Sequence record: LC765218.1 | Direction: 5' to 3' (one strand) | Source of the DNA: Pseudomonas phage BRkr | Length of the DNA stretch: 64,000 nucleotides | Shown: positions 12,656 to 58,905 of the stretch, one piece after another | How the letters are laid out: each line of letters starts with the position of its first letter | Numbering within the stretch: the stretch's first letter is position 1 | The notes under the pieces: model-generated | Told to the model about the DNA's origin: nothing | Database searches by the model: none | What the model saw: the letters and a program-made list of their open reading frames with translations, nothing else | Program-made: the position numbers and the translations under genes

Positions 12656-12688
12656 AGAGAACATCTTTTCAAAGAAAGGAGAATATCG

Positions 12689-13471
12689 ATGAATATTGCT
12701 GAAAAAGTAAATGAGCTTATTAAGGAACTAGACAATAACAAATTTTATCTCATTCAGTTCAACCAACGAGTTGATGGAGAGTGCCAACATTTCTATCTTT
12801 GTGATGATATGGCAGGAGCGAGGCTCGACCGAGACCATCGGAAAGCAACTCTATTTAACCCGGTAAAAGATGATATTAGTCTCTTCATTAACCTTGGATA
12901 CTGTTTAGTAACGACTCGTACGCATCAGAGTCTTATTAAGTCAGCCAATATGGATCACCCGGCCTGGGTTGGTGATTGGGACGTAGAGCTAGCTCCCTGT
13001 ATGGTCGAATATGATAATTCGCTCCGTTTAGGTTTCACCGTTAGTAAAGAGGGAGATGTTCAAGCCGGTTATGTTTTCCCACCCGTTCATGTGACGGAAG
13101 AGAAACCTATAATCGTTCATGATAAGGAATCCATGGATTCCATCGTTGAAGAACAGCTTAATGCTCGGGTAACTCCAGATTTCTTTGATGGATTCGATAT
13201 TCTGTCTGTCCAAGATATCTTAACCTTGCTGCGTACTTTCAAATGGCAGAATGCTGATAAGGTTAAATGTGCTGGCCAACATGCAGTTCGACAAAAGAAA
13301 GATATGTTGATTTACGAATTCGGCATCAACGGAGTTATCCATATTGATATCTTGAATGAACTATACAGCGTTCTGAAAGAACAAGGTTGGACTGGTGCGT
13401 CTACTGCTGTATCAGGTATGGCCTCTGGTTCTTGGACCCGTCTCATGTTACATCGAAAGGTAGCTGTATGA
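12689..13471 (+). CDS. hypothetical protein (260 aa)
   Basis: AAGGAG RBS 8 nt upstream; first gene of the plus-strand block. Confidence 0.55.
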   Translation: MNIAEKVNELIKELDNNKFYLIQFNQRVDGECQHFYLCDDMAGARLDRDHRKATLFNPVKDDISLFINLGYCLVTTRTHQSLIKSANMDHPAWVGDWDVELAPCMVEYDNSLRLGFTVSKEGDVQAGYVFPPVHVTEEKPIIVHDKESMDSIVEEQLNARVTPDFFDGFDILSVQDILTLLRTFKWQNADKVKCAGQHAVRQKKDMLIYEFGINGVIHIDILNELYSVLKEQGWTGASTAVSGMASGSWTRLMLHRKVAV

Positions 13472-13884
13472 GGAGAGTAAAATTCTATTCACGGTTAGCT
13501 GCACAGGCATTGACTGACGAAAGCTACATTATTTCTATTCGCTGTCCCGAACAAGACGTAAAATTTGTACGCGAACACAAAGCTGTATTGGTTCTTGTTT
13601 TCGATGATATTGAAGATTATGTAGATAATCGTTATCAAATGTTTGACTACGTGCATGCTGATAAGATTCTTACATTCATCGATAAGATTCCAGATGGCGA
13701 AACGTTAATCGTTCACTGCGAGGCTGGCGTATCACGTAGTGCAGCTGTGGCTAAGTTTCTTCAGGGTATTGGCTGGGAAATCAAGAAAGATCGTTTTTGT
13801 AATGGTAAATTAGACATGGCTAATGGTCGAGTCTACGGTATGCTTCGTACTGTACATTATAGCCGTTCCAAAAATGAAGCTTAA
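13468..13884 (+). CDS. Cys-based protein phosphatase (dual-specificity/PTP-like), copy 1
   Basis: Canonical CX5R P-loop VHCEAGVSRSAAVA; start ATG overlaps the upstream stop (ATGA). Start moved from 13387 to 13468. Confidence 0.65.
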   Translation: MRRVKFYSRLAAQALTDESYIISIRCPEQDVKFVREHKAVLVLVFDDIEDYVDNRYQMFDYVHADKILTFIDKIPDGETLIVHCEAGVSRSAAVAKFLQGIGWEIKKDRFCNGKLDMANGRVYGMLRTVHYSRSKNEA

Positions 13885-13913
13885 CGATATGTCTATTCAA
13901 AAGAAGGTGTAAC

Positions 13914-19950: not shown

Positions 19951-20595
19951 ATGACAGTTCTCTCTGATAAAACAATTCGTGAATACTGCGAAGGCACAAT
20001 GGTCGGTGCACATGGTCCAATGATAGAACCATTTCACGGTTCGTCAGTGAAAGAAGATAGTCATGGAAAGCGTATCGCTTCCTATGGTCTGTCCTCTGGG
20101 GGTTATGATCTTCGAGCTGGTACTGAGTTTAAAGTATTCAAGCCTCTACCTAAGTTCACTCTTTGGCAACGTTTCAAAGCCTGGGTAACAGGTAAAGAAC
20201 TTGAACACCCTGTACTGGATTACAAGAACATCAGCGCTGATCTGTTTGATACAGTCTACGGTGATAAAGTTGTAGTTCCCCCAGGTGGTTTCCTTCTGAC
20301 TCATTCGAAAGAGTATGTTCGAATGCCTCGGAATGTAATCGCAATGTGTATTGGTAAATCTACCATCGCGCGAGCTGGTTGGAACTGTCTGTGTACTCCA
20401 ATCGAGCCAGGTTGGGAAGGACATATCACGTTCGAGTTCCAGAACACTACTAATCGCCCTAACGTGTTCTATGCACATGAAGGTGTTTTGCAACTGGTGT
20501 TCCATGATCTCGATCAAGATTGTGAAACTTCCTATGCAGATCGTGGTGGTAAATACATGAAACAGGCAGATAAGGTTATTCTGCCTCGGGTATAA
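19951..20595 (+). CDS. dcd: dCTP deaminase family protein (Dcd/dUTPase-fold)
   Basis: EPGWEGHITFEFQN matches the Dcd DPGWSGCIVLEFYN block; overall length and motif order match Dcd. Confidence 0.65.
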   Translation: MTVLSDKTIREYCEGTMVGAHGPMIEPFHGSSVKEDSHGKRIASYGLSSGGYDLRAGTEFKVFKPLPKFTLWQRFKAWVTGKELEHPVLDYKNISADLFDTVYGDKVVVPPGGFLLTHSKEYVRMPRNVIAMCIGKSTIARAGWNCLCTPIEPGWEGHITFEFQNTTNRPNVFYAHEGVLQLVFHDLDQDCETSYADRGGKYMKQADKVILPRV

Positions 20596-21243: not shown

Positions 21244-23839
<2,596 letters not shown>

Positions 23840-30598: not shown

Positions 30599-30635
30599 GG
30601 GGCTCCTTCGGGAGCCCCATCTATTTTCTTTTTGT
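30599..30635 (+). terminator. terminator ggggctccTTCGggagcccc + T-rich tail
   Basis: 8-bp stem followed by TCTATTTTCTTTTTG. Confidence 0.65.
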
Positions 30636-30649
30636 CGTGAGGTATAGAA

Positions 30650-31405
30650 ATGACATCTCCATTCGTAATGTCCCGTATCCATAAAGAGATCGCTGATGGT
30701 CTTTCTCTTGGCACTGTAGATATCGGACGCAAACCACTGGAGTTCGTATTTTGCACCCCCAGTTATGAAGAGTTTCAAGAACTCGTAGCTATCTCTGATT
30801 TTGTCAAGCAACTTGGACATGACCTTAAAGTGTTTCATGGTACGCTTGATGCACTCGGAGACCACGCGGACGAGTTTGACTACTACATGACCGCGGGTAA
30901 CTCATACGGGCATATGACCGGTGGATATGATGGTGCCCTAGCTACCCGTTTTGTTAACATGCAGAAAAATGTGGTTCACGATATCAATCGTTTCCACAAC
31001 GGTGAGTTAAACGTAGGTTCCTGTGCTTGCGTTCAATTCACCAAACTTAATGGTATCACTGCAACACTCCTGTACACTCCTACGATGCGTGTTCCTCGCA
31101 GGCTACCCAAAGGTTCGGATGTTCCGTATCTAGCCTCTAAGGCAGCTCTAGATGGCATTGCTGGGTGTGAATGGTACGGTAAACAAAAGAAAGATTCTTT
31201 CCGTGTCCTCGGTTGCCTGATGGGAACCGGCACTGGTGTTATTCCAGCCCGAGTAGCTGTAACCCAATTTGCAATTGCGTTGTACAACTATACTTACCCG
31301 TCCAATGTAGAGAAGCTGTTTAAGGATGGTCAACGTACTGACAACGCTATTCGTGAAACCTGGAAAGAAGAGGGCGGGTTCTGGAAACTTCGTCTTGAGG
31401 AATAA
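30650..31405 (+). CDS. macro-domain protein (ADP-ribose binding/processing)
   Basis: HGTLDALGDHADEFDYYMTAGNSYGHMTGGYDGALA aligns with the macro core GDITxxxxDVIVNAANxxLxGGGGVDGAIH. A later GTGTGVIP matches the macro P-loop-like GxGxxGxP block. Confidence 0.6.
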   Translation: MTSPFVMSRIHKEIADGLSLGTVDIGRKPLEFVFCTPSYEEFQELVAISDFVKQLGHDLKVFHGTLDALGDHADEFDYYMTAGNSYGHMTGGYDGALATRFVNMQKNVVHDINRFHNGELNVGSCACVQFTKLNGITATLLYTPTMRVPRRLPKGSDVPYLASKAALDGIAGCEWYGKQKKDSFRVLGCLMGTGTGVIPARVAVTQFAIALYNYTYPSNVEKLFKDGQRTDNAIRETWKEEGGFWKLRLEE

Positions 31406-31407
31406 AC

Positions 31408-31674
31408 ATGGCATCCTTAATTAGCTATACCCCTGTTGAACGCAAACGAGAATTCGATCTGAAGTACAAACACAATAATAACATCCACTTCGTTATCGAC
31501 AACAGTCACACTGGTAATATGCCGGTCGTGGAATCAGTTGCAGATGGGTTTAAAGTCATCTGTACGGATTATCAGAATTTCAATATGCACCGCCGTGACG
31601 AAAGTCCATATTGGGATCATTTCTACGAAGTAGCTGGTATCCCGAAATCCTACGACCCTGAGGAAAAGAAATGA
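31408..31674 (+). CDS. hypothetical protein (88 aa)
   Basis: ORF chained by overlaps. Confidence 0.4.
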   Translation: MASLISYTPVERKREFDLKYKHNNNIHFVIDNSHTGNMPVVESVADGFKVICTDYQNFNMHRRDESPYWDHFYEVAGIPKSYDPEEKK

Positions 31675-31979
31675 TTAGTTACGTTGCTGAAAGCACCACT
31701 GAAGATTCGCTGGTTAAATACAAAGTCGACTTCGGTACTATTCCAACTCCCCGTAAACTGATTGCCATTAAGCAAAATGATGAAGTTTTCGAACTGGGTG
31801 AAATCAACACTGATGATAACACTTATCAGTATTACGATAAACGTAATAACCTAGTCGTAGCTGTTGTCAAATATGACGAATTCAATAACAGTATTCGTCT
31901 CCTTACCGAACGTAAACACACTGAGAATTATGAATTCATATTCGGTTCTCACTCGGTGAAATTCAAAGGTGAAAAATGA
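31671..31979 (+). CDS. hypothetical protein (102 aa)
   Basis: ATGA overlap coupling. Confidence 0.4.
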   Translation: MISYVAESTTEDSLVKYKVDFGTIPTPRKLIAIKQNDEVFELGEINTDDNTYQYYDKRNNLVVAVVKYDEFNNSIRLLTERKHTENYEFIFGSHSVKFKGEK

Positions 31980-32380
31980 ACAATCCAACTGTAAACGCTT
32001 TACCTCTTCCAACTACTAATGAAGTCAAATTTTTGTTGACTCCGTTCAACAATTATAAACTGACTGTACCGCCGTCTCGTGGTCACTACTTCATCGGGTT
32101 GACTGAAGTCACTGCTTACATTAACCCAGGTAACATGGGTATCATCGTACCCAGTTGCGATCACCTGATGGGTATCTCTCGCACTAGCAATAGTTCAGGC
32201 GATTACACTGAAGTTCAATACATGGCAACTGATGAACTTGTTCCGAACGGTGCTCGTGTGTGGGTTGATGGCGGTAGTATCCATTATGAATCTGATGGTG
32301 ATGACGCCCGTGCCGAATCTGGTATCATTCTCCAAGTAACTGCAAAGTTCCTAAAGGTAGTTGAAGATGACAATCTCTGA
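31976..32380 (+). CDS. hypothetical protein (134 aa)
   Basis: ATGA overlap coupling; faint dUTPase-like motif, not supported. Confidence 0.4.
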   Translation: MNNPTVNALPLPTTNEVKFLLTPFNNYKLTVPPSRGHYFIGLTEVTAYINPGNMGIIVPSCDHLMGISRTSNSSGDYTEVQYMATDELVPNGARVWVDGGSIHYESDGDDARAESGIILQVTAKFLKVVEDDNL

Positions 32381-32705
32381 AATCGTAAGTCGTAACCTAC
32401 TGCAATCCACTGGTGCTTGGGCAGTCGTCCATAACCGTGCTACCATGAACTTCATTGCTATCGGTCATGACCGTAAGGTTATTAAAGGTATCAGTCTGGG
32501 TTATCCGGTGAATGTTGGTGATGTCGATTTCAGTCATGTCGTGGATGTCCCTATGACCTTCGAAATCAGTTATCAAAATGATCCTCATCTGGGTCATCCT
32601 ACTGGTAATATGGAAGCTCTTCTGAAAGCTATTGAAGAAACTACCCATAAAACTCTAGGTCTTCCTAGCAAGTTGACCGTAGCTTCTAACGATGGAGGTG
32701 TTTAA
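32361..32705 (+). CDS. hypothetical protein (114 aa)
   Basis: Overlap coupling. Confidence 0.4.
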   Translation: MKMTISEIVSRNLLQSTGAWAVVHNRATMNFIAIGHDRKVIKGISLGYPVNVGDVDFSHVVDVPMTFEISYQNDPHLGHPTGNMEALLKAIEETTHKTLGLPSKLTVASNDGGV

Positions 32706-34048
32706 TGCATCAGTATCTACAACTACTTGAAGATACCCAGAAGTACGGTGTATTTAAAGGTGACCGTACTGGTACGGGTACTACCTCTTTGTTCGGTAGA
32801 CAGTTCCGCTATGATCTTCGTAACGGTAACCTCCCTGTAGTGACCACCAAGAAGATTCATCTTCCGTCGGTTGAAGAAGAACTCAACTGGATGAAGTCTG
32901 GTGACACTCGCCTTGAGTATCTCCTGAGCAAGAACGTTACCATTTGGAATGAATGGGTTAAACCAGGTACTGAAGTATTTGAAATTGTTTCTGATGAGTG
33001 GTTAACCACGGCTGTTCAGAAAAAGTTCAAAAACGTTCCATTTGAAATGCACTTCAGTAATGAGATCGGTGATGTTGATTGGAAGTGGCTTGAACCCGAG
33101 CAGGGTACCCCAGCTAAACTTCTGATTAATCTGAAGACGTGGGCCGATACGGAACGCTTTGGTCCTGGTCCTAGTGCTTATGATTATTACGGCATGGCTC
33201 TACGTGTTTATCGCATCACTATTGGCGATGCAAAGATCGTAGTCAAAGACAAAGATGGTTCTCTTGTTGCTTACCGTTTAATCGGTGGTGACCTTGGTCC
33301 TGTCTACGGCAAGACATGGCGTGATATCGATGACGTTCGAATTGTCCCCAAAGTCGACTGGGTTAACTACGAGAAACGTGGTTTTAAATTCGTGGTAGAC
33401 GTACCTGGTGAAGACTATACTAAAGACGAGTGTGTTATTCGTCGACATGTGGATCAGGTTCAGGAACTCTTGTATCAGTTGGAGCATAATCCGGATAGTC
33501 GTCGTCTGATTATCTGCGCTTGGGATCCTCGGTTGGTTGAAGATCAAGCACTACCTCCATGCCACGCATTTATTCAGTTCTGGACTCGTGAGCTGACTCT
33601 AGAAGAACGTTATGAATGGGCGCAGGAAAATGATCCAGAATCACAGAACATTTATCTAGAGGATCAGCAACCTGAAACTGGACACGAGCTATGGGATAAA
33701 CTCGGGGTTCCGAAACGAGCTATCAGTTGCCAACTCTATCAAAGATCGGCGGACGAATTTTTGGGCGTGCCCTTTAACATCATGTTCTATTCGCTGATGA
33801 CCCATCAATTGGCGAACCAGTTTAACATGGTAGCAGAAGAGTTCATCTGGACTGGTGGTGACTGTCACATCTACAGTAACCATGAGGAACAGGTTACTCT
33901 GCAACGTTCGCGGAATACTTATCCTACTCCTACCATCCGCTTCAAGCCTGAGGCCAAAGGTAAACCTTTCCTTGATATCACTCGGGAAGATTACGAGATT
34001 CTGGATTATCAGTTCCATCCGCACATTGCTGGTAAAGTTGCTGTTTAA
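32705..34048 (+). CDS. thyA: thymidylate synthase (ThyA) family enzyme with three large insertions (447 aa)
   Basis: DRTGTGT, DLGPVYGK, catalytic Cys in LPPCHAFIQFW and FLGVPFNI. GGDCHIYSNH keeps the Asn typical of uracil substrates. About 180 aa of extra sequence relative to the 264-aa E. coli enzyme. Confidence 0.8.
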   Translation: MHQYLQLLEDTQKYGVFKGDRTGTGTTSLFGRQFRYDLRNGNLPVVTTKKIHLPSVEEELNWMKSGDTRLEYLLSKNVTIWNEWVKPGTEVFEIVSDEWLTTAVQKKFKNVPFEMHFSNEIGDVDWKWLEPEQGTPAKLLINLKTWADTERFGPGPSAYDYYGMALRVYRITIGDAKIVVKDKDGSLVAYRLIGGDLGPVYGKTWRDIDDVRIVPKVDWVNYEKRGFKFVVDVPGEDYTKDECVIRRHVDQVQELLYQLEHNPDSRRLIICAWDPRLVEDQALPPCHAFIQFWTRELTLEERYEWAQENDPESQNIYLEDQQPETGHELWDKLGVPKRAISCQLYQRSADEFLGVPFNIMFYSLMTHQLANQFNMVAEEFIWTGGDCHIYSNHEEQVTLQRSRNTYPTPTIRFKPEAKGKPFLDITREDYEILDYQFHPHIAGKVAV

Positions 34049-34055
34049 CATAAAC

Positions 34056-34082
34056 GCCTCCCTTCGGGGAGGCTTTATTTTC
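34056..34082 (+). terminator. terminator gcctcccTTCGgggaggc + TTTATTTTCC
   Basis: 7-bp stem and T-rich tail. Confidence 0.65.
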
Positions 34083-34101
34083 CTTTGGAGGTATACTTCT
34101 T

Positions 34102-34509
34102 ATGAACAATATCGAACTTAAACATCAGCTTGAACTCGCCGTAGAACTGATGGGTGTAGACCCTGCTCCACTTAAAATCGGTATCGCTGGTGATCGAGTT
34201 GATACTGCAACACGATGCGGTATTTTCAATGGGAAAGATCCGGGTAGAGAATTCAGTATCGGTCTTGGAATTGTTAGCCGAAAGCAATGGCTTGAACTCA
34301 CTGATGATTCCCTGATTCTCAATAAACCAAATAAAGATCCGGTTGTCATTCCCTATGACGCTATCTATGAGTTGAACATTCCTCTGGAATATGGCGAACA
34401 AGCAGAAAAAGAAGGTTGGATGTATTACAACCTTCTCGGGGAATCGATGTTCATGTATTTGGATACCGGTAAAGAAGAGAAACTTCAACTAGCTAAGGTA
34501 GAAGCCTGA
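34102..34509 (+). CDS. hypothetical protein (135 aa)
   Basis: ORF only. Confidence 0.45.
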   Translation: MNNIELKHQLELAVELMGVDPAPLKIGIAGDRVDTATRCGIFNGKDPGREFSIGLGIVSRKQWLELTDDSLILNKPNKDPVVIPYDAIYELNIPLEYGEQAEKEGWMYYNLLGESMFMYLDTGKEEKLQLAKVEA

Positions 34510-35333
34510 TGGATCCACGACACCCAGTTAGCGATGAAATGCGCGCAACGGTAAACGCTGAACTTGACCGAATTGAGAGGAAGTACGGTGTAAAGATTAT
34601 TTACGCTTGTGAGTCTGGTAGTCGTGGTTGGGGTTTTGCTTCTACTAACAGTGACTATGATGTTCGTTTCATCTACGTTAACCATCCGAGTCATTACGTT
34701 CGTGTAGATAACGAAGGTCGTGACACTATCGAGGAGATGGTATCGAAAGAACTCGATCTAGCTGGTTGGAATATCACCAAGACTCTACAGTTGGCTTATA
34801 AGTCCAACCCAACTCTGTTGGAATGGCTAAACTCTCCGATCGTCTATCGGAAGAATCAATGGGACTACGATCTGATTCGTTCCTATGCCATCAAGCACTT
34901 CATTCCTGAATCGAGCTTCATGCATTATATCTCCATGGCCAAACAAACCAAGATGCGATGGCTGTCGGATGATAAGGTTCGAATGAAGAAATACTTCTAT
35001 GCTTTGCGTCCTCTACTTGCAGCATTGTGGGTAGAGACCAGTCGTGAACATCCACCCATGGTGTTCCATGAACTGTTGCCTATTCTGTCTGATCCTACTC
35101 TGTACAAGCGTATCCAAGAATTGGTTAACGCTAAGGTTGGAGCTACTGAGCAGGATCTCGTTGACCGTTGCCCAGTTCTTGATCGGTTCATTGATTTCCA
35201 TCTGGCTAAAGAGAAACCAAACTTCGGCGAATACGAACGTCCGGATATCTACAGGCTCAGTGAACTCGCTTGGCACTTCGTTGATCAATACAAGTTCGAC
35301 ACGTTCCAGTTACTACATGGTACTGAAAAATGA
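34509..35333 (+). CDS. Pol-beta-superfamily nucleotidyltransferase (predicted)
   Basis: NTase signature ...CESGSRGWGFASTNSDYDVRFIY (hG[GS] x9-13 DhDh). Confidence 0.55.
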   Translation: MDPRHPVSDEMRATVNAELDRIERKYGVKIIYACESGSRGWGFASTNSDYDVRFIYVNHPSHYVRVDNEGRDTIEEMVSKELDLAGWNITKTLQLAYKSNPTLLEWLNSPIVYRKNQWDYDLIRSYAIKHFIPESSFMHYISMAKQTKMRWLSDDKVRMKKYFYALRPLLAALWVETSREHPPMVFHELLPILSDPTLYKRIQELVNAKVGATEQDLVDRCPVLDRFIDFHLAKEKPNFGEYERPDIYRLSELAWHFVDQYKFDTFQLLHGTEK

Positions 35334-35920
35334 ACGGCGGATTAGAGATGGCTATTATAAATGCAGCAGCGGCACGTTCCCCACACGGTTACAGTGAATC
35401 CATCGGCTGTAAGATAACTACCCGTAAGGAACCGTACGTGCCTATTTCCAAATGGGTTAAATTACGGTGTGTCGTATTGTATCTACTCTGTCTGTTATTC
35501 TTGAGTGGCGCAATCTACAACAGCTTGTATTCGGAATACGTAACCAAACGTAAGACGGAGGTGATTCTAACTTGGAAGTGGGAGGAATCTTACAAGTACA
35601 AGAATGGCGTTTATACCGAACTAATGAGTCGTTGGGAAGGGAAGATGAAAGGAAAACCTTTCGTCTATGAAACCAAGCTGGATAATTACACCTATCACCA
35701 TGTTCCCGTAGGTACAAATTATGTCCTCGATATCGCCCCGCGCGATGTTGATGAAAGTAATAGCCTATGGATTATCATGAGCTTGGTATGGGCAGCTTTA
35801 GCTGCCATCTTGGGTGGACCTGCAATGTGGTTCAGTGTGAGACCATGGTTTGTTGATGTAGAACTCCGGAGGAAAGAGAAAGAATGTGCTATGAAAGAAG
35901 AATCATCCCACTCGCAATAA
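35330..35920 (+). CDS. membrane protein (2 TM segments)
   Basis: Hydrophobic segments VVLYLLCLLFLSGAIY and LWIIMSLVWAALAAILGG; ATGA coupling. Confidence 0.45.
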   Translation: MNGGLEMAIINAAAARSPHGYSESIGCKITTRKEPYVPISKWVKLRCVVLYLLCLLFLSGAIYNSLYSEYVTKRKTEVILTWKWEESYKYKNGVYTELMSRWEGKMKGKPFVYETKLDNYTYHHVPVGTNYVLDIAPRDVDESNSLWIIMSLVWAALAAILGGPAMWFSVRPWFVDVELRRKEKECAMKEESSHSQ

Positions 35921-36130
35921 ACTCTTATCCTCTTCCAGCGTTCTTATGGAATGAGCGGTGCCTTCGGGCACCAAAGCCCTTCATGATCGATGGCTACTAT
36001 CACATACCTCCCTATCGTAGGGTAAGACCGGGATTTATAGTTGTTCCTACTGGCTTCACGACAACGCCTAGTACCGTAAGAGATGTAGTTGAGCCTCTAC
36101 GCGGTCGAGTGCGTAATACCAATAAGGCTA

Positions 36131-36160
36131 TTGACAATTTACTCAAAAGTCTTATCTAAT
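36131..36160 (+). promoter_or_regulatory. sigma70-like promoter candidate (TTGACA-18-TCTAAT)
   Basis: Exact -35 hexamer and a 5/6 -10 hexamer at 18-nt spacing, about 110 nt upstream of rtcB. It sits in one of only two long non-coding stretches in the window. Confidence 0.35.
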
Positions 36161-36162
36161 AC

Positions 36163-36191
36163 GGACATGCATGACATTACTCTACATGTCC
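36163..36191 (+). promoter_or_regulatory. leader hairpin ggacatg(15 nt)catgtcc
   Basis: 7-bp inverted repeat directly downstream of the candidate promoter, upstream of rtcB. Confidence 0.3.
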
Positions 36192-36270
36192 TTGGAATTC
36201 TGCGATCCCGACCTTGGCACAACGTTAAATCGTTGAATTCCTAAACCTTAAAACATCCGGAGCGTCTACA

Positions 36271-37524
36271 ATGACTACTCAAAATTACGTTATGCTGAAC
36301 GAACAAAATGAATTCCCAATCAAAGGCTGGGTTAAGGGCGTACCGGTTGAAGCCGATGCTAAGCGTCAGCTGAAAAACATTGCGGGACTCCCGTTCATTT
36401 ACAAGCATTTGGCAGTAATGCCTGATGTCCATCTTGGGACCGGTGCTACCATCGGTTCTGTTATCGCTACTCGGGGTGCAATCATTCCGTCTGCGGTAGG
36501 GGTCGATATTGGGTGCGGAATGGCCTGCCAGCTGACTGATCTGACAGCTAACGACATGACTCGTGGCCTACAACATCTTCGATATAGAATCGAGTCCCGT
36601 ATCCCCCATGGTCGTACTGACAATGGCGGACCTAACGACCGTGGTGCATGGAGTGACTTCAACCTCGTTTACAAGAAACTCGAACCAGAACTCCAAGTTC
36701 AGGTTAAGAAGCTTGAAGAGGAACTGAAGCTCATTGTAGCTAAACACCCCAAACTGGGTAAAGCAGCTAACCGTGCGTTCAACCATGCTGGTACCCTCGG
36801 CACTGGTAACCACTTCGTCGAAATCTGTCTGGATGAACAAGATCGAGTTTGGATCATGCTCCATTCGGGTTCTCGTGGGATCGGTAACGCTATTGGTCGG
36901 TACTTCATCGAGAAAGCAAAAGAGGAGATGCGGCTCTACCACATCAACCTGCCTGATCAGGACCTCGCTTATCTGCCGGAAGGTACCAAGTACTACAACG
37001 ATTACATCGAAGCTGTACATTGGGCTCAGCGTTATGCAGCACTCAACCGTACCATCATGATGCGGGCGACCATTGAGGCTGTAGCTGATTACATGGGTCG
37101 TCCAATCAATACCAGTCTCACTGCGGTCAACTGCCACCACAACTACGTGTCGTTCGAGAATCACTTCGGTGCGAAAGTATCCGTTACTCGTAAAGGCGCT
37201 GTACGGGCAGATGAAGGCATGTATGGTATTATCCCTGGATCGATGGGTGCAAAGAGCTTCATCGTGAAAGGTAAAGGGAACCGCGAGTCCTTCTGTTCGT
37301 GTTCGCACGGAGCAGGACGTGTCATGTCCCGAACCCAAGCCGCTAAGACTTTCACTCTTGAAGATCATGCTCGTGATACTGCCGGTATAGAATGCCGGAA
37401 AGACATTGACGTAATCGACGAGACTCCAAAGGCTTATAAGAACATCGAAGACGTAATGGCTGCTCAGGATGACCTCATTGAGATCGTCCACACCCTGCGT
37501 CAAATTGTTTGCGTCAAGGGCTAA
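36271..37524 (+). CDS. rtcB: RtcB RNA 3'-phosphate/2',3'-cyclic phosphate--5'-OH ligase
   Basis: Hallmark blocks NHAGTLGTGNHFVEI, HSGSRGIG, CHHNYVSFENHFG and the C-terminal SCSHGAGR. Confidence 0.85.
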   Translation: MTTQNYVMLNEQNEFPIKGWVKGVPVEADAKRQLKNIAGLPFIYKHLAVMPDVHLGTGATIGSVIATRGAIIPSAVGVDIGCGMACQLTDLTANDMTRGLQHLRYRIESRIPHGRTDNGGPNDRGAWSDFNLVYKKLEPELQVQVKKLEEELKLIVAKHPKLGKAANRAFNHAGTLGTGNHFVEICLDEQDRVWIMLHSGSRGIGNAIGRYFIEKAKEEMRLYHINLPDQDLAYLPEGTKYYNDYIEAVHWAQRYAALNRTIMMRATIEAVADYMGRPINTSLTAVNCHHNYVSFENHFGAKVSVTRKGAVRADEGMYGIIPGSMGAKSFIVKGKGNRESFCSCSHGAGRVMSRTQAAKTFTLEDHARDTAGIECRKDIDVIDETPKAYKNIEDVMAAQDDLIEIVHTLRQIVCVKG

Positions 37525-37571
37525 CCCGAACGGGGACTTCGGTCCCCATAACTTTCCTAAAGGAAAAATAA

Positions 37572-38459
37572 ATGATTCGAATTACTCAGCTTCACGGTAA
37601 CGGCCTGGCAGATCACTACGATTGTCAGCCCTTTAAATTCCCTGGCGGTGAGATCGGTATCAAGATCCCTCTGAAAGATCACAGAAAGAAAGGTGAACAA
37701 TTCATAGTCAATGCTTGGCTTCGTAATAGCGATGACATCATGGAACTGTTCCTGGTGTTCGATGCTATTCGTCGTCAACGTATTCGTCCTGAAATGCACC
37801 TGGTTATTGGTTATCTGCCGTATGCACGACAAGATCGTGTTTGCGATGAAGGTGAACCTTTGTCGATCAGTGTGATGACTAGCTTGATCAACGCATTGGA
37901 TGCTACATCCGTGTGTTTGTACGATCCGCACAGCAATGTGTCGCTACCGCTCATCAACAACTGTCGTGAAATCACCCAAGCTGATATTATCAAGAGCTGG
38001 GTATGTGTAGAAGGACAACTTCTGGAAACTCCACAAGAATGGTGGTTGGTTGCCCCTGATGAAGGTGCACGTAAAAAGATCGAAGCCATTGCAAAAGAGA
38101 TTGGCGCTGCTGGCGTACTCTACGCTTGCAAGAACCGTGAACTGTCGACTGGTAAGATCACCCATACGTCTTTGTTGAATGCCCATGATGTTCCTCGGTT
38201 AGCAAAGCTGTTGGTTATCGATGACATCTGTGATGGTGGCCGCACGTTCATTGAACTTGCTAAGGTTATCCACGAACAGTGCATCGTAGATCAACTGGGT
38301 CTGTTTGTAACCCATGGTATTTTCTCCAAGGGTTTCGACGAGCTGAACGAATACTACGACTATATCCAGACCACTAACACCTATCATCCTAACGCCGTAA
38401 ATGATTATCGGCATGATGGTGTACGTGACCCGAAATTCTTCTCCCATTCTGTTTTCTAA
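37572..38459 (+). CDS. prs: ribose-phosphate pyrophosphokinase family enzyme (Prs, or ADPR-PP synthetase Adps-like)
   Basis: FPGGEIGIKI (Prs FxDGE-type), LPYARQDR and PRPP-binding loop LLVIDDICDGGRTF. Confidence 0.7.
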   Translation: MIRITQLHGNGLADHYDCQPFKFPGGEIGIKIPLKDHRKKGEQFIVNAWLRNSDDIMELFLVFDAIRRQRIRPEMHLVIGYLPYARQDRVCDEGEPLSISVMTSLINALDATSVCLYDPHSNVSLPLINNCREITQADIIKSWVCVEGQLLETPQEWWLVAPDEGARKKIEAIAKEIGAAGVLYACKNRELSTGKITHTSLLNAHDVPRLAKLLVIDDICDGGRTFIELAKVIHEQCIVDQLGLFVTHGIFSKGFDELNEYYDYIQTTNTYHPNAVNDYRHDGVRDPKFFSHSVF

Positions 38460-38475
38460 TCCGAGGATCAAAAAT

Positions 38476-40242
38476 ATGTCTAATGCTCTCTATGCTGCAA
38501 CTGCTACTGACTGCTACAAACCCGGTCATGGTGCTCTGTACCCGAAAGGTACTGAACGTAAATATGCTAACTTCACCCCGCGCTCTGCTAAGCAGTTCCT
38601 GCGGTCGAAGTCTTGCTCTGCGTTCTACGATAACAAAGTCGTTAACTTCGGGTTGCAAGGTACCTGGCACGAACTGGTAGAACTGTGGGATCGCACCTTC
38701 TTCAATCTGCCTCGTGAAATTGCCGTCAAACGTGCACAACGTCGTTTCGACAACATGTGCGGTAAAGGCGTAATCAAACATGAGTGTCTGTACAAACTAC
38801 ATGAACTGGGTTATCTGCCTCTGACTGTACTGGCTATTGATGAAGGTGAACGTGTTAACATTGGTGTTCCAACTTTCGTAGTTTACAACAGTCTGGATGA
38901 CGATGATCATTACTGGCTGGTGAACTATCTGGAAACCATCGTTAGTTCGTACAACTGGAAAATGATTTGCAACGCAACCATCGCTGCTGAATACCAACGT
39001 GTATTGAACCATTATGCTGACCGTACTTGCGATAACCGTGAGCACGTTAAGTTCCAAGCACATGATTTCAGCTTCCGTGGTATGAGTGGCCCTGAAGATG
39101 CAATGCGTTCTGGCTCGGCTCACCTGACTAGCTTCGCTGGTACTGATACCATCCCGGCACTTGATTACGCTGAGATGTATTACGGTGCTAATAGCGATAC
39201 TGAACTGTTGGGTGCTTCGGTTACTGCAACCGAACACGCTGTAGCCACTACCAACATCCTGTACCGTTTGCAAATGAAGATCAACTTCCTCAAAGAGGAA
39301 GGTACTGTGATCACGCCGGAACTGCATGACAAACTGCGACTGGAAGCTGAACGTGACTACATTCTGGAGATCATTCTTCAGAAAGTTCCGGAAGGCATCA
39401 TCTCGCTGGTCTGTGATTCCTTCGACTTCTGGGGTGTTATCTCTGATGTTCTCCCGAGCATCCGTGCAGAAATCGAAAGTCGTCTGAAGAATGAACTTGG
39501 CCTTGCCAGGGTTGTTGTTCGTCCTGACTCCGGTGATCCGGTTAAAGTTATTACTGGCTACATGGCTTACCCGACTGAGTTTGCAGATCGCGCTGATTTC
39601 GAGAAGCACATCGGTGAACTGGGGTCCATTGAGTTCAGTGGCTACGAAGTTGTACGTATCGCAGGCGAATACTACGAGATCAATCACATTGCTTCGTTGC
39701 TCTCCGATTTCCTGTCTGAAAAGACTATCCCGGAAGTTGAAGTACGTGGTGCGATTGAAGTCCTGTGGGATTCCTTTGGCGGTACTGTTAACGGTAAAGG
39801 CTTCAAATGCCTGAACGAATATGTTGGCCTGATCTATGGCGATTCGATTACTGTAGAACGTACCGAGCAGATCATGTCTCGCTTGGAACGTAAAGGCTAC
39901 GCCTCTAGTAACGTCGTTCTCGGTATTGGTAGCTACACCTATCAGTACAACACTCGCGATACGTTCGGTATGGCCGTTAAAGCCACTGCTGTTCAGATCG
40001 AAGAGGAATTCGTAGAGCTGTATAAAGATCCAAAAGCTGCATCTAGTAAGAAGTCTGCAAAAGGTTTCCTTCGTGTAATTAAAGATGAAGAAGGTAACTT
40101 CGTTCTTGAACAAGAAGCCGACATGTCTTGGGCGACTCTGGAGACAGAATCCGGCGAATTGAAGCTGTTCTTTAAGAATGGTGAATTCTACAAGAACGAC
40201 ACGATGGCAAAAATCCGGGAACGGATTGCGACCTCTCTGTAA
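38476..40242 (+). CDS. nadV: nicotinamide phosphoribosyltransferase family enzyme (NAMPT/NadV or Namat-like)
   Basis: N-terminal AATATDCYKPGH matches the NAMPT TDSYK block; ~590 aa; GAGGA RBS before the ATG at 38476. Confidence 0.75.
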   Translation: MSNALYAATATDCYKPGHGALYPKGTERKYANFTPRSAKQFLRSKSCSAFYDNKVVNFGLQGTWHELVELWDRTFFNLPREIAVKRAQRRFDNMCGKGVIKHECLYKLHELGYLPLTVLAIDEGERVNIGVPTFVVYNSLDDDDHYWLVNYLETIVSSYNWKMICNATIAAEYQRVLNHYADRTCDNREHVKFQAHDFSFRGMSGPEDAMRSGSAHLTSFAGTDTIPALDYAEMYYGANSDTELLGASVTATEHAVATTNILYRLQMKINFLKEEGTVITPELHDKLRLEAERDYILEIILQKVPEGIISLVCDSFDFWGVISDVLPSIRAEIESRLKNELGLARVVVRPDSGDPVKVITGYMAYPTEFADRADFEKHIGELGSIEFSGYEVVRIAGEYYEINHIASLLSDFLSEKTIPEVEVRGAIEVLWDSFGGTVNGKGFKCLNEYVGLIYGDSITVERTEQIMSRLERKGYASSNVVLGIGSYTYQYNTRDTFGMAVKATAVQIEEEFVELYKDPKAASSKKSAKGFLRVIKDEEGNFVLEQEADMSWATLETESGELKLFFKNGEFYKNDTMAKIRERIATSL

Positions 40243-40250
40243 TAGACATG

Positions 40251-40275
40251 GGGAGCTTCGGCTCCCCTTTATGTC
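40251..40275 (+). terminator. terminator ggggagcTTCGgctcccc + TTTATG
   Basis: 7-bp stem. Confidence 0.65.
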
Positions 40276-40284
40276 ATAAAAAAG

Positions 40285-40305
40285 ATTTCAAATCTATATT
40301 ACTCT
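40285..40305 (+). promoter_or_regulatory. class A promoter-like motif (TTCAAATCTATATTACTC)
   Basis: CTATATTAC 30 nt upstream of the ATG at 40332. Confidence 0.5.
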
Positions 40306-40331
40306 CTTGTATCCACAACGAGGTAACTGCA

Positions 40332-40730
40332 ATGTCGAATAAAGACCGTTTAGATGAAAAGAAAGAATGGCAAGAATCGAACCCAGTTCTCAATGAGTTC
40401 TGCTGGACTATAAGTCGTACCATGGGCGACGTAGCACGTACCAGTGACGACCGTACTCCCATTGTCGATATCCCTGCTGGAAAGACTTATGAAATCACTA
40501 CCAACCAGGAGAACGATATTTATAATGTCGGTCTTGAAACTGGTATGGTGAACTTCGTTGATCACCTACGCGAGAATGGTTACAAGATCATCTCGCCGGT
40601 AAGTGGGCATCCTGTCCCATTTGAGCAAGCTGTAACCTTGGTAAATAGCACAGAGCAGGTCGTACAAGAACTACCTGGTAAGTCTTTCGTTGAAACCTTC
40701 TATGATTATAACTGGGGTGTGAATACATGA
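40332..40730 (+). CDS. hypothetical protein (132 aa)
   Basis: ATG after the promoter-like motif; the ORF-track start at 40248 lies inside the terminator. Confidence 0.45.
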   Translation: MSNKDRLDEKKEWQESNPVLNEFCWTISRTMGDVARTSDDRTPIVDIPAGKTYEITTNQENDIYNVGLETGMVNFVDHLRENGYKIISPVSGHPVPFEQAVTLVNSTEQVVQELPGKSFVETFYDYNWGVNT

Positions 40731-40933
40731 TCGCAGCGCCGCCGACACCGGGTAAAGTAACGATAGATGGTTTACGTCGAACGTTGTCAGATCAGATTGA
40801 AGCTGAAATTTCATTGGCTTGTCGTGAAATTGAACTGACAGACATTCGTTATGTAGATCAAAAAGAAATACTCGAAATAGTGCGGCGGTTCCGTAATGAC
40901 GTTCGCACAACCATCACTGATAAAGGTAAATAA
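40727..40933 (+). CDS. hypothetical small protein (68 aa)
   Basis: Overlap coupling. Confidence 0.4.
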   Translation: MIAAPPTPGKVTIDGLRRTLSDQIEAEISLACREIELTDIRYVDQKEILEIVRRFRNDVRTTITDKGK

Positions 40934-40934
40934 A

Positions 40935-42290
40935 ATGACGATTGAAATGGATGAATTGAAACCGATCCGCGAAGGTTTTGGTGTAGTAGAAGAAACTCGT
41001 AAGCTTGCACGCATTGTTGAGATCGATGATGTTGTGAAACACCCTAATGCCGATGCTCTGGAATTGGCTATTGTTGGTGGTTGGCAACTTTGTGTAAAGA
41101 TGGGCGAATATAAGAAAGGTGATCGCGCTATTTACTGCGAGATTGATTCTCTTCTTCCTCTGGATAACGTTAAGCTCTTCGGTTTTCTTGAGAGCCGTCG
41201 GTCCGACAATCGACGTGTAGACGGTAAAAACTATCATCGTTTGAAAACTATCAAGCTTCGTAAAGAGCTCTCTCAAGGACTACTGGTTCCGATTCCCGAT
41301 GAGTTCAAAGATGAACCCGTTGATACTAACCTGACCCTGAAGCTGGGTATCCTTAAGTACGAGTCTGCTCCTCCGATGGTATCGAAGGCTCATGCAGCAC
41401 GTAACGCTCCGTGGATCGTTAAGCTTGGTGCCAAGCTGATTGGTAATCTGGGTGGCGCTCTGAAACCGTGGCCTGAGATGCTAACTAAGTCCGATCAAGA
41501 CCGCATTCAGAATAAGACCGTTGCGTTTTATAACCTGAAAGAAGACGGTGATGACATGGAAGTTACCTATAAGCTGGATGGTAGCTCCATGACCGTATTC
41601 TGTGTCGATGACAAAGGTATTCGTACTGGCGTTTGTTCGCGGAACTACGAACTCGGAATGGGTGGTGAGAAGTGGGGATTCATCCAGCAGCTTCGGTATT
41701 GGGTTGGTAACTTCCTTATCCGTAACCGTAATCTGTTCCGTAAGAAGACCTGGGTTACTCCAGAAGGTAAACTTCGTAATGGTATTATTCTGCCCCTTTG
41801 GACGAAAGGTACCGCTATCGAAGACAATAACTTCGTACGTGTAACTAACCAACAACAGATCATCGAACGTCTTCTCAAGTTCCACAAGAACACCGGTCGC
41901 TTCATTTCTGTACAAGGGGAACTGATTGGACCATCTATTCAAGATAACTTTGAAGAAGTGGCTGATTACGATTATTACATCTTCAACGTATATGAGGATG
42001 GTAATCGTGAACTCCTGCCGGCCGAAGCACGAGCTGTTGTAAAAGACCTTGGTCTGAATTATGTTCCCGTACTTGACCCGTGCTGGAAACCTTCTAAGGA
42101 AATGTCTGTTAAAGATGTTCTCGCTATGGCTGAAGGTCCATCTGCATTTAAGAACAAGCGCGGATACCGGGAAGGTCTGGTATTTAAGTCCAACCAACGT
42201 GTTCTGTCGTGGAAAGCCATTTCGACTAATTATCTCTTGAAGAAAGAGAAAGAAGAAGAGAAAGCAGCTGCTAAAGAAGACGCTGTATAA
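40935..42290 (+). CDS. ATP-dependent RNA ligase with an N-terminal tRNA-binding-type OB domain (Rnl5-like architecture)
   Basis: N-terminal VVKHPNADALELAIVGGWQLCVKMGEYKKGDRAIYCEIDSLLP resembles the tRNA-binding OB (Myf/Trbp111) fold. Nucleotidyltransferase motif I TYKLDGSS (KxDG), motif IV-like GYREGLVFK, Lys-rich C-terminus. Confidence 0.6.
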   Translation: MTIEMDELKPIREGFGVVEETRKLARIVEIDDVVKHPNADALELAIVGGWQLCVKMGEYKKGDRAIYCEIDSLLPLDNVKLFGFLESRRSDNRRVDGKNYHRLKTIKLRKELSQGLLVPIPDEFKDEPVDTNLTLKLGILKYESAPPMVSKAHAARNAPWIVKLGAKLIGNLGGALKPWPEMLTKSDQDRIQNKTVAFYNLKEDGDDMEVTYKLDGSSMTVFCVDDKGIRTGVCSRNYELGMGGEKWGFIQQLRYWVGNFLIRNRNLFRKKTWVTPEGKLRNGIILPLWTKGTAIEDNNFVRVTNQQQIIERLLKFHKNTGRFISVQGELIGPSIQDNFEEVADYDYYIFNVYEDGNRELLPAEARAVVKDLGLNYVPVLDPCWKPSKEMSVKDVLAMAEGPSAFKNKRGYREGLVFKSNQRVLSWKAISTNYLLKKEKEEEKAAAKEDAV

Positions 42291-42299
42291 CGACATAAA

Positions 42300-42326
42300 G
42301 GGAGCTCTAGCTCCCTTTTTATTTTT
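42300..42326 (+). terminator. terminator gggagcTCTAgctccc + T-tract
   Basis: 6-bp stem followed by TTTTTATTTTT. Confidence 0.65.
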
Positions 42327-48255: not shown

Positions 48256-48864
48256 ATGATGGATATTGTAGCAGAAGCATATCAGCAAGTTAAAGCTATC
48301 TTGGATACTCGCATCCCGGCGAACGTGCTTCCGCTATGGAAAGGGCATCACACAGTAGAGTTAGCAGCAGCTATTGGTGTAGGTTATACGATCGGTTCTG
48401 GTGAACGACGTAAAGGTTCTGGGCTACCGGTATGGACACATTTGCACAATGCAGCATCCATCGGTAAAATGTTTGGACTTGGTCCTGGCGAACAGGCTGC
48501 CTTGTGGTTACATGACATCGTCGAAGATAGTAGCTGGACTCTCGATGACGTTCTAACTCATTTCACGCCGTATATCACCAAACTTGTACAAGGTTTAACG
48601 CAGCCGAATTTTGATGCTCCTCGGAAAGTTCGAATCGATGCGTATCATCGGCAATTAGAAGAATGTTGTGACGTTACACAGACGTGCAAACTTATTGAAT
48701 CTCTCACCAACGTGTATGTCATCGTTGATGATGCTCCTAAGTTTGCGCCCGTCTTCCTCAAAGAGAAATTGGACCTCTATAATCGAATGACTAAAGCTCA
48801 TCCGGTAGTAAGAGATGTATTCAAGATTTTCTTAGACGAGGCATTTGCTAAACTGGAGGCTTAA
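48256..48864 (+). CDS. HD-domain phosphohydrolase (SpoT/Mesh1-like ppGpp-hydrolase-type HD)
   Basis: H...HD signature: HTVELAAAI followed by ALWLHDIVEDS, matching the RelA/SpoT HD motif LHDVIEDT. Confidence 0.55.
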   Translation: MMDIVAEAYQQVKAILDTRIPANVLPLWKGHHTVELAAAIGVGYTIGSGERRKGSGLPVWTHLHNAASIGKMFGLGPGEQAALWLHDIVEDSSWTLDDVLTHFTPYITKLVQGLTQPNFDAPRKVRIDAYHRQLEECCDVTQTCKLIESLTNVYVIVDDAPKFAPVFLKEKLDLYNRMTKAHPVVRDVFKIFLDEAFAKLEA

Positions 48865-58279: not shown

Positions 58280-58516
58280 ATGCTGACTTACAACATCCTG
58301 AACGATATGGTTACCATCATCCATCTGGATCCGGTTACCATGACTCCCGAGCGCTTCCAGGCTTACAACATGCATGTGGCTGGTAAACTCGGACATGATG
58401 CACGTGCTTTCATGAAGAAAGATGGGCACGGCTACGACGTGATCGAATGCTGGGGTTCCAGCGTAGAAGCCAAAGAAAAACTGATTCAAGCACTGCGCGA
58501 GGTTGATTCCAAATGA
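58280..58516 (+). CDS. hypothetical protein (78 aa)
   Basis: ORF only. Confidence 0.4.
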   Translation: MLTYNILNDMVTIIHLDPVTMTPERFQAYNMHVAGKLGHDARAFMKKDGHGYDVIECWGSSVEAKEKLIQALREVDSK

Positions 58517-58905
58517 GTATCGTATCTGTAAAGGTTACTCGTAAGCGTAAAGGCGTTATCCATGTTCCTCGTGGTGTTGGGTGTGCCGTTAATCCCGGTA
58601 CCAATCTGATCAGTATCGAATACAACCGTGCTGATAATTACGGTATCGCTGACGGTGTCAATGTCTTCGAGATTGATGGATTCGATAATCCCATCAATAG
58701 CCGTAATGCAGAGCTCGTCGAATGGGTAAAAGCCTGTAATGGCGAAAATATCGTTGTCCATTGTGAAATGGGCATGAAGCGTTCCAAGCAAGTAGCTCTG
58801 TGGATCATCGAACACTTCGGTTACCACATGATGGATACCATTGAATTCCAGCGGCCGGGTGATGGAAACTGGGTTCGTTACAACCGCTATCGCTCGGGAG
58901 AATAA
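58513..58905 (+). CDS. Cys-based phosphatase (CX5R), copy 2, divergent
   Basis: VHCEMGMKRSKQVA: HC-x5-R-S P-loop. Confidence 0.5.
   Translation: MSIVSVKVTRKRKGVIHVPRGVGCAVNPGTNLISIEYNRADNYGIADGVNVFEIDGFDNPINSRNAELVEWVKACNGENIVVHCEMGMKRSKQVALWIIEHFGYHMMDTIEFQRPGDGNWVRYNRYRSGE

Follow-up and report, generated by a model that had tools for sequence, protein, structure and literature searches.

The DNA analysed here is a 64,000-nucleotide (nt) stretch of Pseudomonas phage BRkr (sequence record LC765218.1), hereafter called the window, and our subject is the 11.6-kb region at positions 30650-42290, in which an initial annotation had suspected one coordinated anti-abortive-infection system that fuses reconstitution of nicotinamide adenine dinucleotide (NAD+) with RNA repair. 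Identity of the region is 99.4% to phage vB_PaeM_phiLBG22, 96.5% to PS119XW (genus Pawinskivirus) and 91% to PA1C, which are phiKZ-like P. aeruginosa jumbo phages of ~300 kb each, and the macro-domain protein is identical to a BRkr protein. We conclude that the region is probably a phiKZ-like jumbo-phage accessory arm of mosaic make-up, in which three known functions stand side by side and do not form a single machine. The eight genes that the initial annotation had called were all recovered; Pfam supported ThyA, RlaP, RtcB, the Prs-like and NAMPT-like proteins and the RNA ligase with its oligonucleotide-binding (OB) domain, and the macro protein was reached only through its relatives, a family profile and AlphaFold2 (AF2)/Foldseek:

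30650-31405, + strand: macro-domain protein of 251 amino acids (aa), Ymx7/YMR087W-like (Macro_2) family; family profile, Pfam matches of relatives, AF2/Foldseek.
32705-34048, + strand: thymidylate synthase (ThyA), long form; Pfam E 1e-81.
34509-35333, + strand: RlaP (PF10127), a Pol-beta nucleotidyltransferase (NTase); Pfam E 3e-89, profile positions 1-239 of 249.
35330-35920, + strand: 196-aa protein with two predicted transmembrane (TM) segments, seen as two hydrophobic segments in the translation.
36271-37524, + strand: RtcB, an intein-free RNA ligase for 3'-phosphate/2',3'-cyclic-phosphate and 5'-OH ends; Pfam PF01139, positions 1-426 of 426, E 6e-130.
37572-38459, + strand: Adps (ADP-ribose (ADPR)-pyrophosphate synthetase, Prs-like), first enzyme of NARP1; homology, orthologues in the NARP1 supplementary table.
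38476-40242, + strand: Namat (nicotinamide ADPR-transferase, NAMPT-like), second enzyme of NARP1; best PDB match SPbetaL1 Namat.
40935-42290 (alternative start 40896), + strand: Rnl5-type ATP-dependent RNA ligase with an N-terminal OB and an NTase domain; PF21189 (residues 37-133) and PF09414.

By homology, the Prs-like/NAMPT-like pair is NARP1, a published pathway already catalogued for this phage lineage. NARP1 consists of Adps and Namat and is distinguished by working without an NMNAT (Osterman et al., bioRxiv 10.1101/2024.02.11.579819), and structures of its enzymes are available (PMC12774641, PMC13586617). Pfam placed the first protein in Pribosyltran_N (E 2e-10) and the second in the NAPRTase/NAMPT family, while direct comparison matched the first to ICP1 Adps at E 3e-30 to 4e-34 and to the FelixO1-type Adps at E 6e-40, as against 1e-14 for the best cellular Prs in the PDB, a comparison that is approximate as the E-values come from different searches. 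The substrate and catalytic residues highlighted in the ICP1 Adps structures (PMC13586617), namely F18, R87, H121, D161, K185, D212, D213 and D216 in ICP1 numbering, are all invariant in an eight-sequence alignment that includes the window Adps; the F92 position is not conserved, being Cys in the window protein and in most homologues. Namat, which likely starts at 38476 rather than at 38401 and then follows the Adps stop (38459) after a 16-nt gap, matched SPbetaL1 Namat at E 1e-102 (9w5w/9w5x; 9W5W is the structure described in PMC12774641) and 9ke8 at E 1e-94. The helix of its selectivity clamp reads GIGSYTYQY (GIGSFTYQY in SPbetaL1), a motif kept in six phage Namats, and includes aromatics at the positions of F392 and Y396 of SPbetaL1, where the mutations F392G and Y396K introduce the NAMPT residues (PMC12774641); this numbering is deduced from chains 9w5w and 9w5x, which are offset by 5 residues. 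The clamp loop around R40 (SPbetaL1), which the structure authors describe as variable, aligns poorly with the window Namat, and the Namats of the window and of other jumbo phages carry two insertions (~40 and ~60 residues) relative to SPbetaL1 Namat.

The window Adps and Namat are 93-100% identical to their PA1C and PS119XW orthologues, and PA1C, PS119XW and RP12 are already tabulated in the NARP1 supplement, with Adps flagged 'Namat within 10 genes: Yes' and Namat flagged 'Adps-associated' (bioRxiv 10.1101/2024.02.11.579819), so the NAD+ part of the region cannot be called an arrangement that textbooks lack. The earlier observation that no NMNAT or Pnkp is visible holds throughout the window, in which Pfam scanning of ~106 open reading frames (ORFs) found no NMNAT, Nudix, polynucleotide kinase (PNK), Tpt1 or archease family member, no 2H enzyme was detectable, and tblastn with phage PNK, Tpt1, Thg1 and Adpp queries gave no match; the missing NMNAT is no anomaly, because needing none defines NARP1. 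Adps would convert ADPR and ATP into ADPR pyrophosphate (ADPR-PP), and Namat would join ADPR-PP to nicotinamide to yield NAD+, both activities being assigned from homology, such that the pair would make good the NAD+ cleaved by defence NADases of the SIR2, TIR and DSR types. Another part of the window also supplies a direct reason for having NARP1, since a phage that encodes the following enzyme, also found in the same arm of phages Viktualia and RTH11, consumes NAD+ in its own replication:

21989-23839, + strand (outside the region): full-length NAD+-dependent DNA ligase of the LigA type with adenylation, OB, HhH and BRCT domains; Pfam PF01653, E 2e-67.

The second function, RNA end repair, is represented by RtcB, RlaP and the Rnl5-type ligase, which together are a recognisable RNA-repair set of known kinds, as the initial annotation had proposed for RtcB, an Rnl-type ligase and an NTase. 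RtcB matched P. horikoshii RtcB at E 5e-33, and the motifs DIGCGM, GNHF, HSGSRG, HHNY and SHGAGR are invariant in the alignment; from P. horikoshii and E. coli RtcB we take these to serve metal binding and the His-GMP intermediate. The RtcB of PS119XW (11708-13912 of that locus) contains a 317-aa intein-like insertion placed exactly at the metal-binding Cys (VGVDIG/CGM), which begins with Cys, ends in ...TGN and is followed by Cys, an insertion not present in the RtcB of the window or of PA1C. Among solved structures the RNA ligase comes closest to Naegleria NgrRnl (5cot, E 4e-46), to which its KLDGSS lysine motif aligns, and on that ground it is assigned to the Rnl5 type; its identity to PhiPA3 gp289 is 75%. 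RlaP, which retains the NTase motif GS...DxD as SGSRG...SDYDV and showed no detectable relative in the PDB, lies two genes upstream of RtcB, a familiar theme given that the rtc operon of the Pseudomonas host is RtcB-RlaP-RtcA (PMC12776372). The RlaP family adds 1-2 nucleotides at 3'-OH ends of damaged RNA, so its product fits Rnl5 and not RtcB, a mismatch between RlaP and RtcB that the authors of that work noted too (PMC12776372).

RtcB would join 2',3'-cyclic-phosphate or 3'-phosphate ends to 5'-OH ends, RlaP would restore one or two lost nucleotides at a 3'-OH end, and the Rnl5-type ligase is predicted to close 3'-OH/5'-phosphate nicks; likely targets of such a set would be tRNA or rRNA cut by host ribotoxins. 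tRNA genes as the reason for carrying RNA-repair genes were rejected, as the window holds none. The PADLOC models matched none of the island proteins, and an Rfam scan of 29-44 kb returned no match.

All ORFs of the region lie on the + strand, in line with the single transcriptional direction described initially, but so do nearly all genes from 12.7 kb to 64 kb, and co-orientation is for that reason uninformative about a module. More telling are 23 perfect GC-rich tetraloop hairpins, mostly with UUCG loops, which occur in the window at positions including 594, 14280, 16880, 28440, 30599, 34056, 37532, 40250, 46316, 50525, 57503 and 62283; 21 of the 23 are intergenic, where intergenic DNA accounts for ~10% of the sequence. 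Six of them fall within or border the region, together with the sole copy that the region has of a promoter motif:

30599-30618, + strand: UUCG hairpin with T-rich tail, terminator-like, just 5' of the macro gene.
34056-34073, + strand: UUCG hairpin with T tail, terminator-like, after ThyA.
35957-35972, + strand: UUCG hairpin without T tail, inside the 350-nt gap (35921-36270) after the membrane-protein gene.
37532-37547, + strand: UUCG hairpin between RtcB and Adps.
40250-40267, + strand: UUCG hairpin with TTTATGTC, terminator-like, directly 3' of Namat.
40295-40302, + strand: TATATTAC, phiKZ-type promoter motif with AT-rich upstream element.
42297-42318, + strand: hairpin with T tail, terminator-like, after the RNA ligase.

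The TATATTAC-type motif is listed as a promoter for phiKZ and 201phi2-1 (PMC7058600). It matched the window nine times against 2.5 expected, every time on the + strand and in eight of nine cases between genes (sites include 12645, 20639, 40295, 46375, 50574, 57566, 57616 and 62336), with TTTAAA...CC as upstream element, and the copy at 40295 sits just after the Namat hairpin and ahead of the genes for a 132-aa protein, a 68-aa protein and Rnl5. A scan for sigma-70 promoters stayed at background (29 found versus 27 expected). As the sigma-70 count is at background and phiKZ-like phages use their own RNA polymerases, promoters were sought with the phiKZ-type motif instead. The sequence T(T/A)TATGTC trails many of the window hairpins and is possibly a combined terminator and promoter signal. 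The hairpins at 37532 and 40250 and the motif at 40295 therefore mark Adps-Namat as a hairpin-bracketed two-gene cassette, and in phage pf16 annotated terminators bracket Adps-Namat likewise.

The third function is that of the macro protein. Since Pfam gave no match for the protein itself, confirmation of the fold needed a family profile and a structure model. PF14519 (Macro_2) was found in six of seven family members and PF01661 in two of seven, the family profile matched yeast Ymx7/YMR087W (1njr) at E 4e-7, and the AF2 model (predicted local distance difference test score, pLDDT, 85) retrieved 1njr as best Foldseek match (E 5e-8), followed by dozens of macrodomains; the motif GNSYGHMTGG(Y/L/F)D(G/L)A is mostly invariant. 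Since 1njr, the closest solved relative, is described as an 'ADP-ribose-1''-monophosphatase', we annotate the protein as a putative ADP-ribose-1''-phosphate phosphatase, which would most likely hydrolyse ADPR-1''-phosphate to ADPR. Members of the family are labelled 'tail protein' or 'tail fiber protein' in RefSeq (YP_010661009.1), Pharokka and PHROG 14717, including those of the P2-like prophages SEN4/5, and this label is probably a mis-annotation.

The initial annotation had joined the macro protein to the Prs-like and NAMPT-like enzymes in a trio for rebuilding NAD+, of which the pair stands as NARP1 and the macro protein fits less well. The trio as such has a precedent in the published NARP1-AP system (Adps-Adpp-Namat), whose Adpp, a Poa1p-like macro phosphatase defined as lying no more than two genes from NARP1, converts ADPR-1''-phosphate, the product of RES-type NAD+ phosphorylases, into ADPR (bioRxiv 10.64898/2026.01.28.702374). 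The window macro protein was tried as an Adpp orthologue and rejected (hhalign against the Adpp of Vibrio phage Gary: probability 22%, E 0.001); the best PDB relatives of the Gary Adpp are OARD1/TARG1-type macrodomains, that of the window protein is Ymx7, and Adpp-type queries found no match in the window. The macro gene precedes Adps by 10 genes and 6.2 kb, with the hairpins at 34056 and 35957 in between, and in relatives (PhiPA3, FBKp24) it neighbours ThyA rather than NARP1.

By analogy with NARP1-AP, ADPR from the macro protein could feed NARP1 when RES-type phosphorylases cleave NAD+, a chemically plausible role; de-ADP-ribosylation, or the handling of by-products from NAD-dependent RNA repair, has about the same likelihood. 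That the macro protein has nothing to do with NARP1, and instead processes the Tpt1/KptA by-products ADPR-1'',2''-cyclic phosphate and ADPR-1''-phosphate, removes ADP-ribose from RNA, DNA or protein, or degrades ADPR signals, is a reading that we give somewhat less than even chances. It draws on Klebsiella jumbo phage FBKp24, in which the macro gene stands five genes downstream of an RNA 2'-phosphotransferase gene and three genes upstream of ThyA, on the retention of macro-ThyA by PhiPA3 in a 20-kb region in which no NARP1 was found, on homologues in Gifsy-1 and SEN4/5, small temperate phages in which NARP1 would be unlikely, and on the finding that a macro gene of the window type is near none of 80 Namat loci, as opposed to 20 of 80 for the Adpp type. 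Set against these points, Tpt1/KptA and 2H enzymes were undetectable in the window, and the chemistry of the closest solved relative is the one needed upstream of NARP1. In FBKp24, ~27 kb (at ~175-202 kb) hold NadR and PnuC, the RNA 2'-phosphotransferase, a macro protein of the same family, a long ThyA, a second macro protein and RtcB; NadR with PnuC is an NAD+ route other than NARP1.

That the region is a mosaic is most apparent from the partners of its parts in related phages. The comparison involves the following smaller genes:

31408-32705, + strand: four small ORFs of 88, 102, 134 and 112-114 aa between the macro gene and ThyA.
34102-34509, + strand: phiKZ gp236-like protein, PHROG 30953; its stop overlaps the RlaP start.
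40332-40933, + strand: small ORFs of 132 and 68 aa upstream of the RNA ligase gene.

The macro gene, ThyA, the 132-aa ORF, Rnl5 (75% identity) and the genes downstream are colinear with PhiPA3, which has the macro gene (45% identity), the 88-aa ORF and ThyA in window order and in which the 132-aa ORF likewise precedes Rnl5. In the matching 20-kb region of PhiPA3 we found no RlaP, RtcB, Adps or Namat, and PhiPA3 is neither among the NARP1 matches listed nor among the supplementary-table rows listed, although absence from the whole genome is unconfirmed. The gp236-RlaP segment (34016-35306) is ~88% identical at the nucleotide level to Phikzvirus (KTN4, fnug, PhiPizzaParty), to which little else of the region matches by megablast, and the gp236-like protein, whose homologues were found only in phiKZ-like P. 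aeruginosa phages, is 98% identical to the PhiPizzaParty copy and 86% identical to that of PA1C, which suggests that co-infecting jumbo phages exchanged the segment recently. In KTN4, RlaP appears to be broken into fragments. RtcB, Adps and Namat have their partners in Ralstonia phage RP12 (67, 41 and 49% identity) and in Viktualia (70, 39 and 51%). RP12 ORF215 (6184-7086 of that locus), annotated as 'hypothetical', is a ThyA of normal length (Pfam E 9e-56), hence the order in RP12 is ThyA-x-RtcB-Adps-Namat-x-Rnl5, which is the window order once gp236-RlaP-TM is removed. In Viktualia and in one IMG/VR locus (L010) the same genes occur in other orders within ~17 kb.

From these comparisons, the backbone of the arm would be the Ymx7-type macro gene with the long ThyA, and the present juxtaposition would have arisen by accretion at a variable spot downstream of ThyA, the parts being shared with PhiPA3 (macro, ThyA, 132-aa ORF, Rnl5), with phiKZ (gp236-RlaP) and with RP12 and Viktualia (RtcB-Adps-Namat).

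We counted neighbours within 10 kb in IMG/VR around the 80 loci closest to the window RtcB and around 80 Namat-centred loci. Adps and Namat accompanied two of the 80 RtcB loci, and no RlaP homologue was near RtcB at any of them; around Namat, Adps was present in 75/80, Rnl5 in 14/80, ThyA in 11/80 and RtcB in 7/80, and the macro counts were those given above (Adpp type 20/80, window type 0/80). On one 125-kb contig RtcB and Namat are ~40 kb apart. Isolates gave 694 records with RtcB and 1393 with Adps, and the two are within ~3.5 kb of each other in only ~22 records from five lineages; RtcB stands directly beside Rnl5 without NARP1 in the Erwinia phages pEa_SNUABM_37/48 and in a further IMG/VR locus (L012). 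Some RNA-repair homologue lies within 10 kb of Namat in 25 of the 80 loci. These neighbourhood data fit general accessory-gene clustering, and a modest real enrichment is compatible with them as well.

It is unlikely, in our estimate, that NARP1, the macro protein, RtcB, RlaP and Rnl5 form one coordinated anti-abortive-infection island, co-selected and co-expressed for joint reversal of damage, and equally doubtful that such an island would serve to counter the cytoplasmic NADases and RNases to which a nucleus-forming phage is inevitably exposed. What speaks for coordination is the gene order conserved in RP12, the presence of the same set inside 17 kb of Viktualia, the sporadic recurrence of NARP1 beside RtcB, PNK, Rnl or Thg1 in phages with hosts from three phyla, the 25 of 80 Namat loci with an RNA-repair homologue, and the short gaps between RtcB, Adps and Namat, which have no TATATTAC promoter between them. 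Yet most NARP1 loci have no RNA-repair neighbours and most RtcB loci no NARP1, 14 of the 25 positive Namat loci come from two lineages, tRNA genes lie near 18/80 Namat loci, roughly the number that we would estimate for genes placed at random in a large phage, the parts differ in their evolutionary partners, and hairpins stand between every sub-block. The two pathways also lack a shared chemical step, and Tpt1/KptA, which ties RNA repair to NAD+, is not in the window. The functions guessed initially for the single parts are mostly right. The claim of a single wired module is accordingly unsupported, because hairpins and promoter subdivide the region, its ancestry is mosaic and the linkage is facultative.

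Several observations nevertheless weigh against a mosaic of independent parts. The hairpins may terminate transcription only leakily or serve to stabilise RNA; the neighbourhood frequencies are raw counts that have no neutral control set beside them; where RtcB is near NARP1, the distance is usually no more than 3 kb; and the colinearity with RP12 is kept at only 34-67% protein identity. NARP1 is also found within ~3 kb of RNA-repair genes in unrelated phages, namely Rhodococcus phage Grayson (RtcB and a tRNA cluster near NARP1), Proteus phage Privateer (PNK and MazG near NARP1, RtcB 3 kb off), Mycobacterium phage BigCheese (PNK adjoining NARP1, an RNA ligase 4 kb off) and Bacillus phage FADO (a Thg1-like enzyme 2 kb from NARP1).

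These observations leave some room for the looser idea that NARP1 and RNA end-repair genes are co-selected neighbours, with the hairpin-bounded Adps-Namat cassette placed inside an RtcB/Rnl5 pair across PA1C-like and RP12-like genera, an idea we hold with low confidence. It is no more probable that NARP1 came to be paired with PNK, RtcB and Thg1 on separate occasions in Actinomycetota, Bacillota and Enterobacterales phages, and we would regard as similarly speculative the bundling of damage-reversal counter-defences in one early-expressed island, to which the Ymx7-type macro protein would contribute a second, non-orthologous solution for ADPR-1''-phosphate. In the literature searched we found no published account of RtcB together with Namat or of recurrent proximity of NARP1 to RNA-repair genes; papers that name both RtcB and NAMPT in phages deal with each in its own section, and the surveys from the Aravind laboratory keep phage NAD+ salvage and RNA repair apart, joined only via KptA/Tpt1.

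Least probable by far is that the Prs-like and NAMPT-like proteins are an ordinary phosphoribosyl pyrophosphate (PRPP) synthetase and NadV, making nicotinamide mononucleotide (NMN) from PRPP and nicotinamide for a host NMN adenylyltransferase (partial NARP2-type or classical salvage): Pfam shows only Prs and NAPRTase/NAMPT families, the GenBank labels agree and Namat keeps some PRPP-dependent NMN synthesis in vitro (PMC12774641), but the NAMPT-like protein is much nearer Namat (E 1e-102) than human or rodent NAMPT (~1e-44), has both clamp-helix aromatics that NAMPT lacks, and is accompanied by a Prs-like protein that resembles characterised Adps more than it does cellular Prs (1e-14 or weaker), with all named Adps residues kept, and the orthologues of both are within the NARP1 authors' own Adps and Adps-associated Namat sets.

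Returning to the mosaic arm as the preferred reading, its remaining genes include the ThyA that had been described as insertion-rich, and it is: a 266-position profile is stretched across 446 residues, which corresponds to ~180 inserted residues, and a long ThyA (~460-490 aa) is present in all four related jumbo phages examined (PhiPA3, KTN4, Viktualia and FBKp24). No credible match to Pfam or PHROG, even at E 0.5, came up for the four ORFs between the macro gene and ThyA, the two-TM protein or the ORFs of 132 and 68 aa, and no fold was inferred for the gp236-like protein, as its AF2 model reached a pLDDT of 39. The 350 nt that separate RtcB from the membrane-protein gene (35921-36270) fold more stably than shuffled sequence (z = -3.3) and match nothing in Rfam; a 42-aa ORF is annotated at this place in PS119XW, and in PA1C the gap is only ~140 nt. 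Elsewhere in the window, distant from the island, are two small stand-alone Cys-phosphatases (Pfam DSPc, motif HCxxGxxRS; 13468-13884 and 58513-58905), which could act on nucleic-acid ends or nucleotides. The auxiliary genes of the window (48256-48864, 19951-20595 and elsewhere) include an HD_4 phosphohydrolase (phiKZ gp246-like) and a dCTP-deaminase-like protein, and QueC-like, Band-7/SPFH, GNAT and LAGLIDADG-type Pfam matches occur as well.

What is new here is modest. The macro protein is re-annotated as a Ymx7-type candidate phosphatase that the published NARP1-AP search would miss because it was limited to two genes from NARP1, and in two genera of jumbo phages NARP1 is found between the members of an RtcB/Rnl5 pair, as well as near RNA-repair genes elsewhere. 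Even if the genes are merely juxtaposed, labels are corrected (from 'tail protein' to Ymx7-type macrodomain, from 'Prs/NAMPT' to Adps/Namat), the NARP1-AP idea gains a candidate alternative phosphatase, and the NAD+ need of the phage acquires a rationale in its own NAD+-dependent DNA ligase. If the proximity reflects selection, such loci would be 'repair-type' counter-defence islands in which NARP1 neighbours could be mined for new anti-defence functions, and they would predict which host systems among NADases, RES phosphorylases, tRNA/rRNA nucleases and Cas13/type III effectors limit therapeutic P. aeruginosa jumbo phages.

Comparison with known systems places each part separately. The yeast pathway for tRNA-splicing by-products (Tpt1, Cpd1, Poa1p/Ymx7) includes the closest solved relative of the macro protein, Ymx7, but the window has neither Tpt1 nor a cyclic phosphodiesterase, and such a link was seen only in FBKp24. 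With T4 Pnkp and Rnl1, the classical counter to the PrrC anticodon nuclease, the region shares the logic of a phage-encoded resealing of host-cut RNA; it differs in having no end-healing kinase/phosphatase, which RtcB does not need, and in its Rnl5, a predicted nick-sealing ligase and no anticodon-loop specialist. The Rtc operon (PMC12776372) likewise brings RtcB and RlaP close together with the same predicted chemistry, sealing by RtcB and 3'-nucleotide addition by RlaP, whereas here RtcA and RtcR are missing, RlaP is upstream, and a membrane-protein gene and the 350-nt gap precede RtcB. The Rnl5 ligases NgrRnl and Deinococcus DraRnl have the same layout of an OB followed by an NTase domain with no C-terminal OB domain, and KLDGSS, EGLVFK and KAIS align, while the window ligase has ~110 extra residues, mostly in one insertion between motif I and the distal NTase half. 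NARP1-AP resembles the region in combining NARP1 with a macro-domain fold, in the same genomic arm, whose predicted hydrolysis of ADPR-1''-phosphate would fit upstream of Adps; the window protein is, however, of the Ymx7/Macro_2 type with 251 aa as against ~158 aa for Adpp, and lies 10 genes away beyond two hairpins instead of within two genes. From NARP1 itself the region differs in nothing essential: adjoining Prs-like and NAMPT-like genes, the conserved Adps residues, the clamp aromatics of Namat and a window without NMNAT are all as published, and the departures are a Namat with two insertions, which other jumbo phages have too, and a pair flanked by RtcB on one side and the Rnl5 unit on the other.

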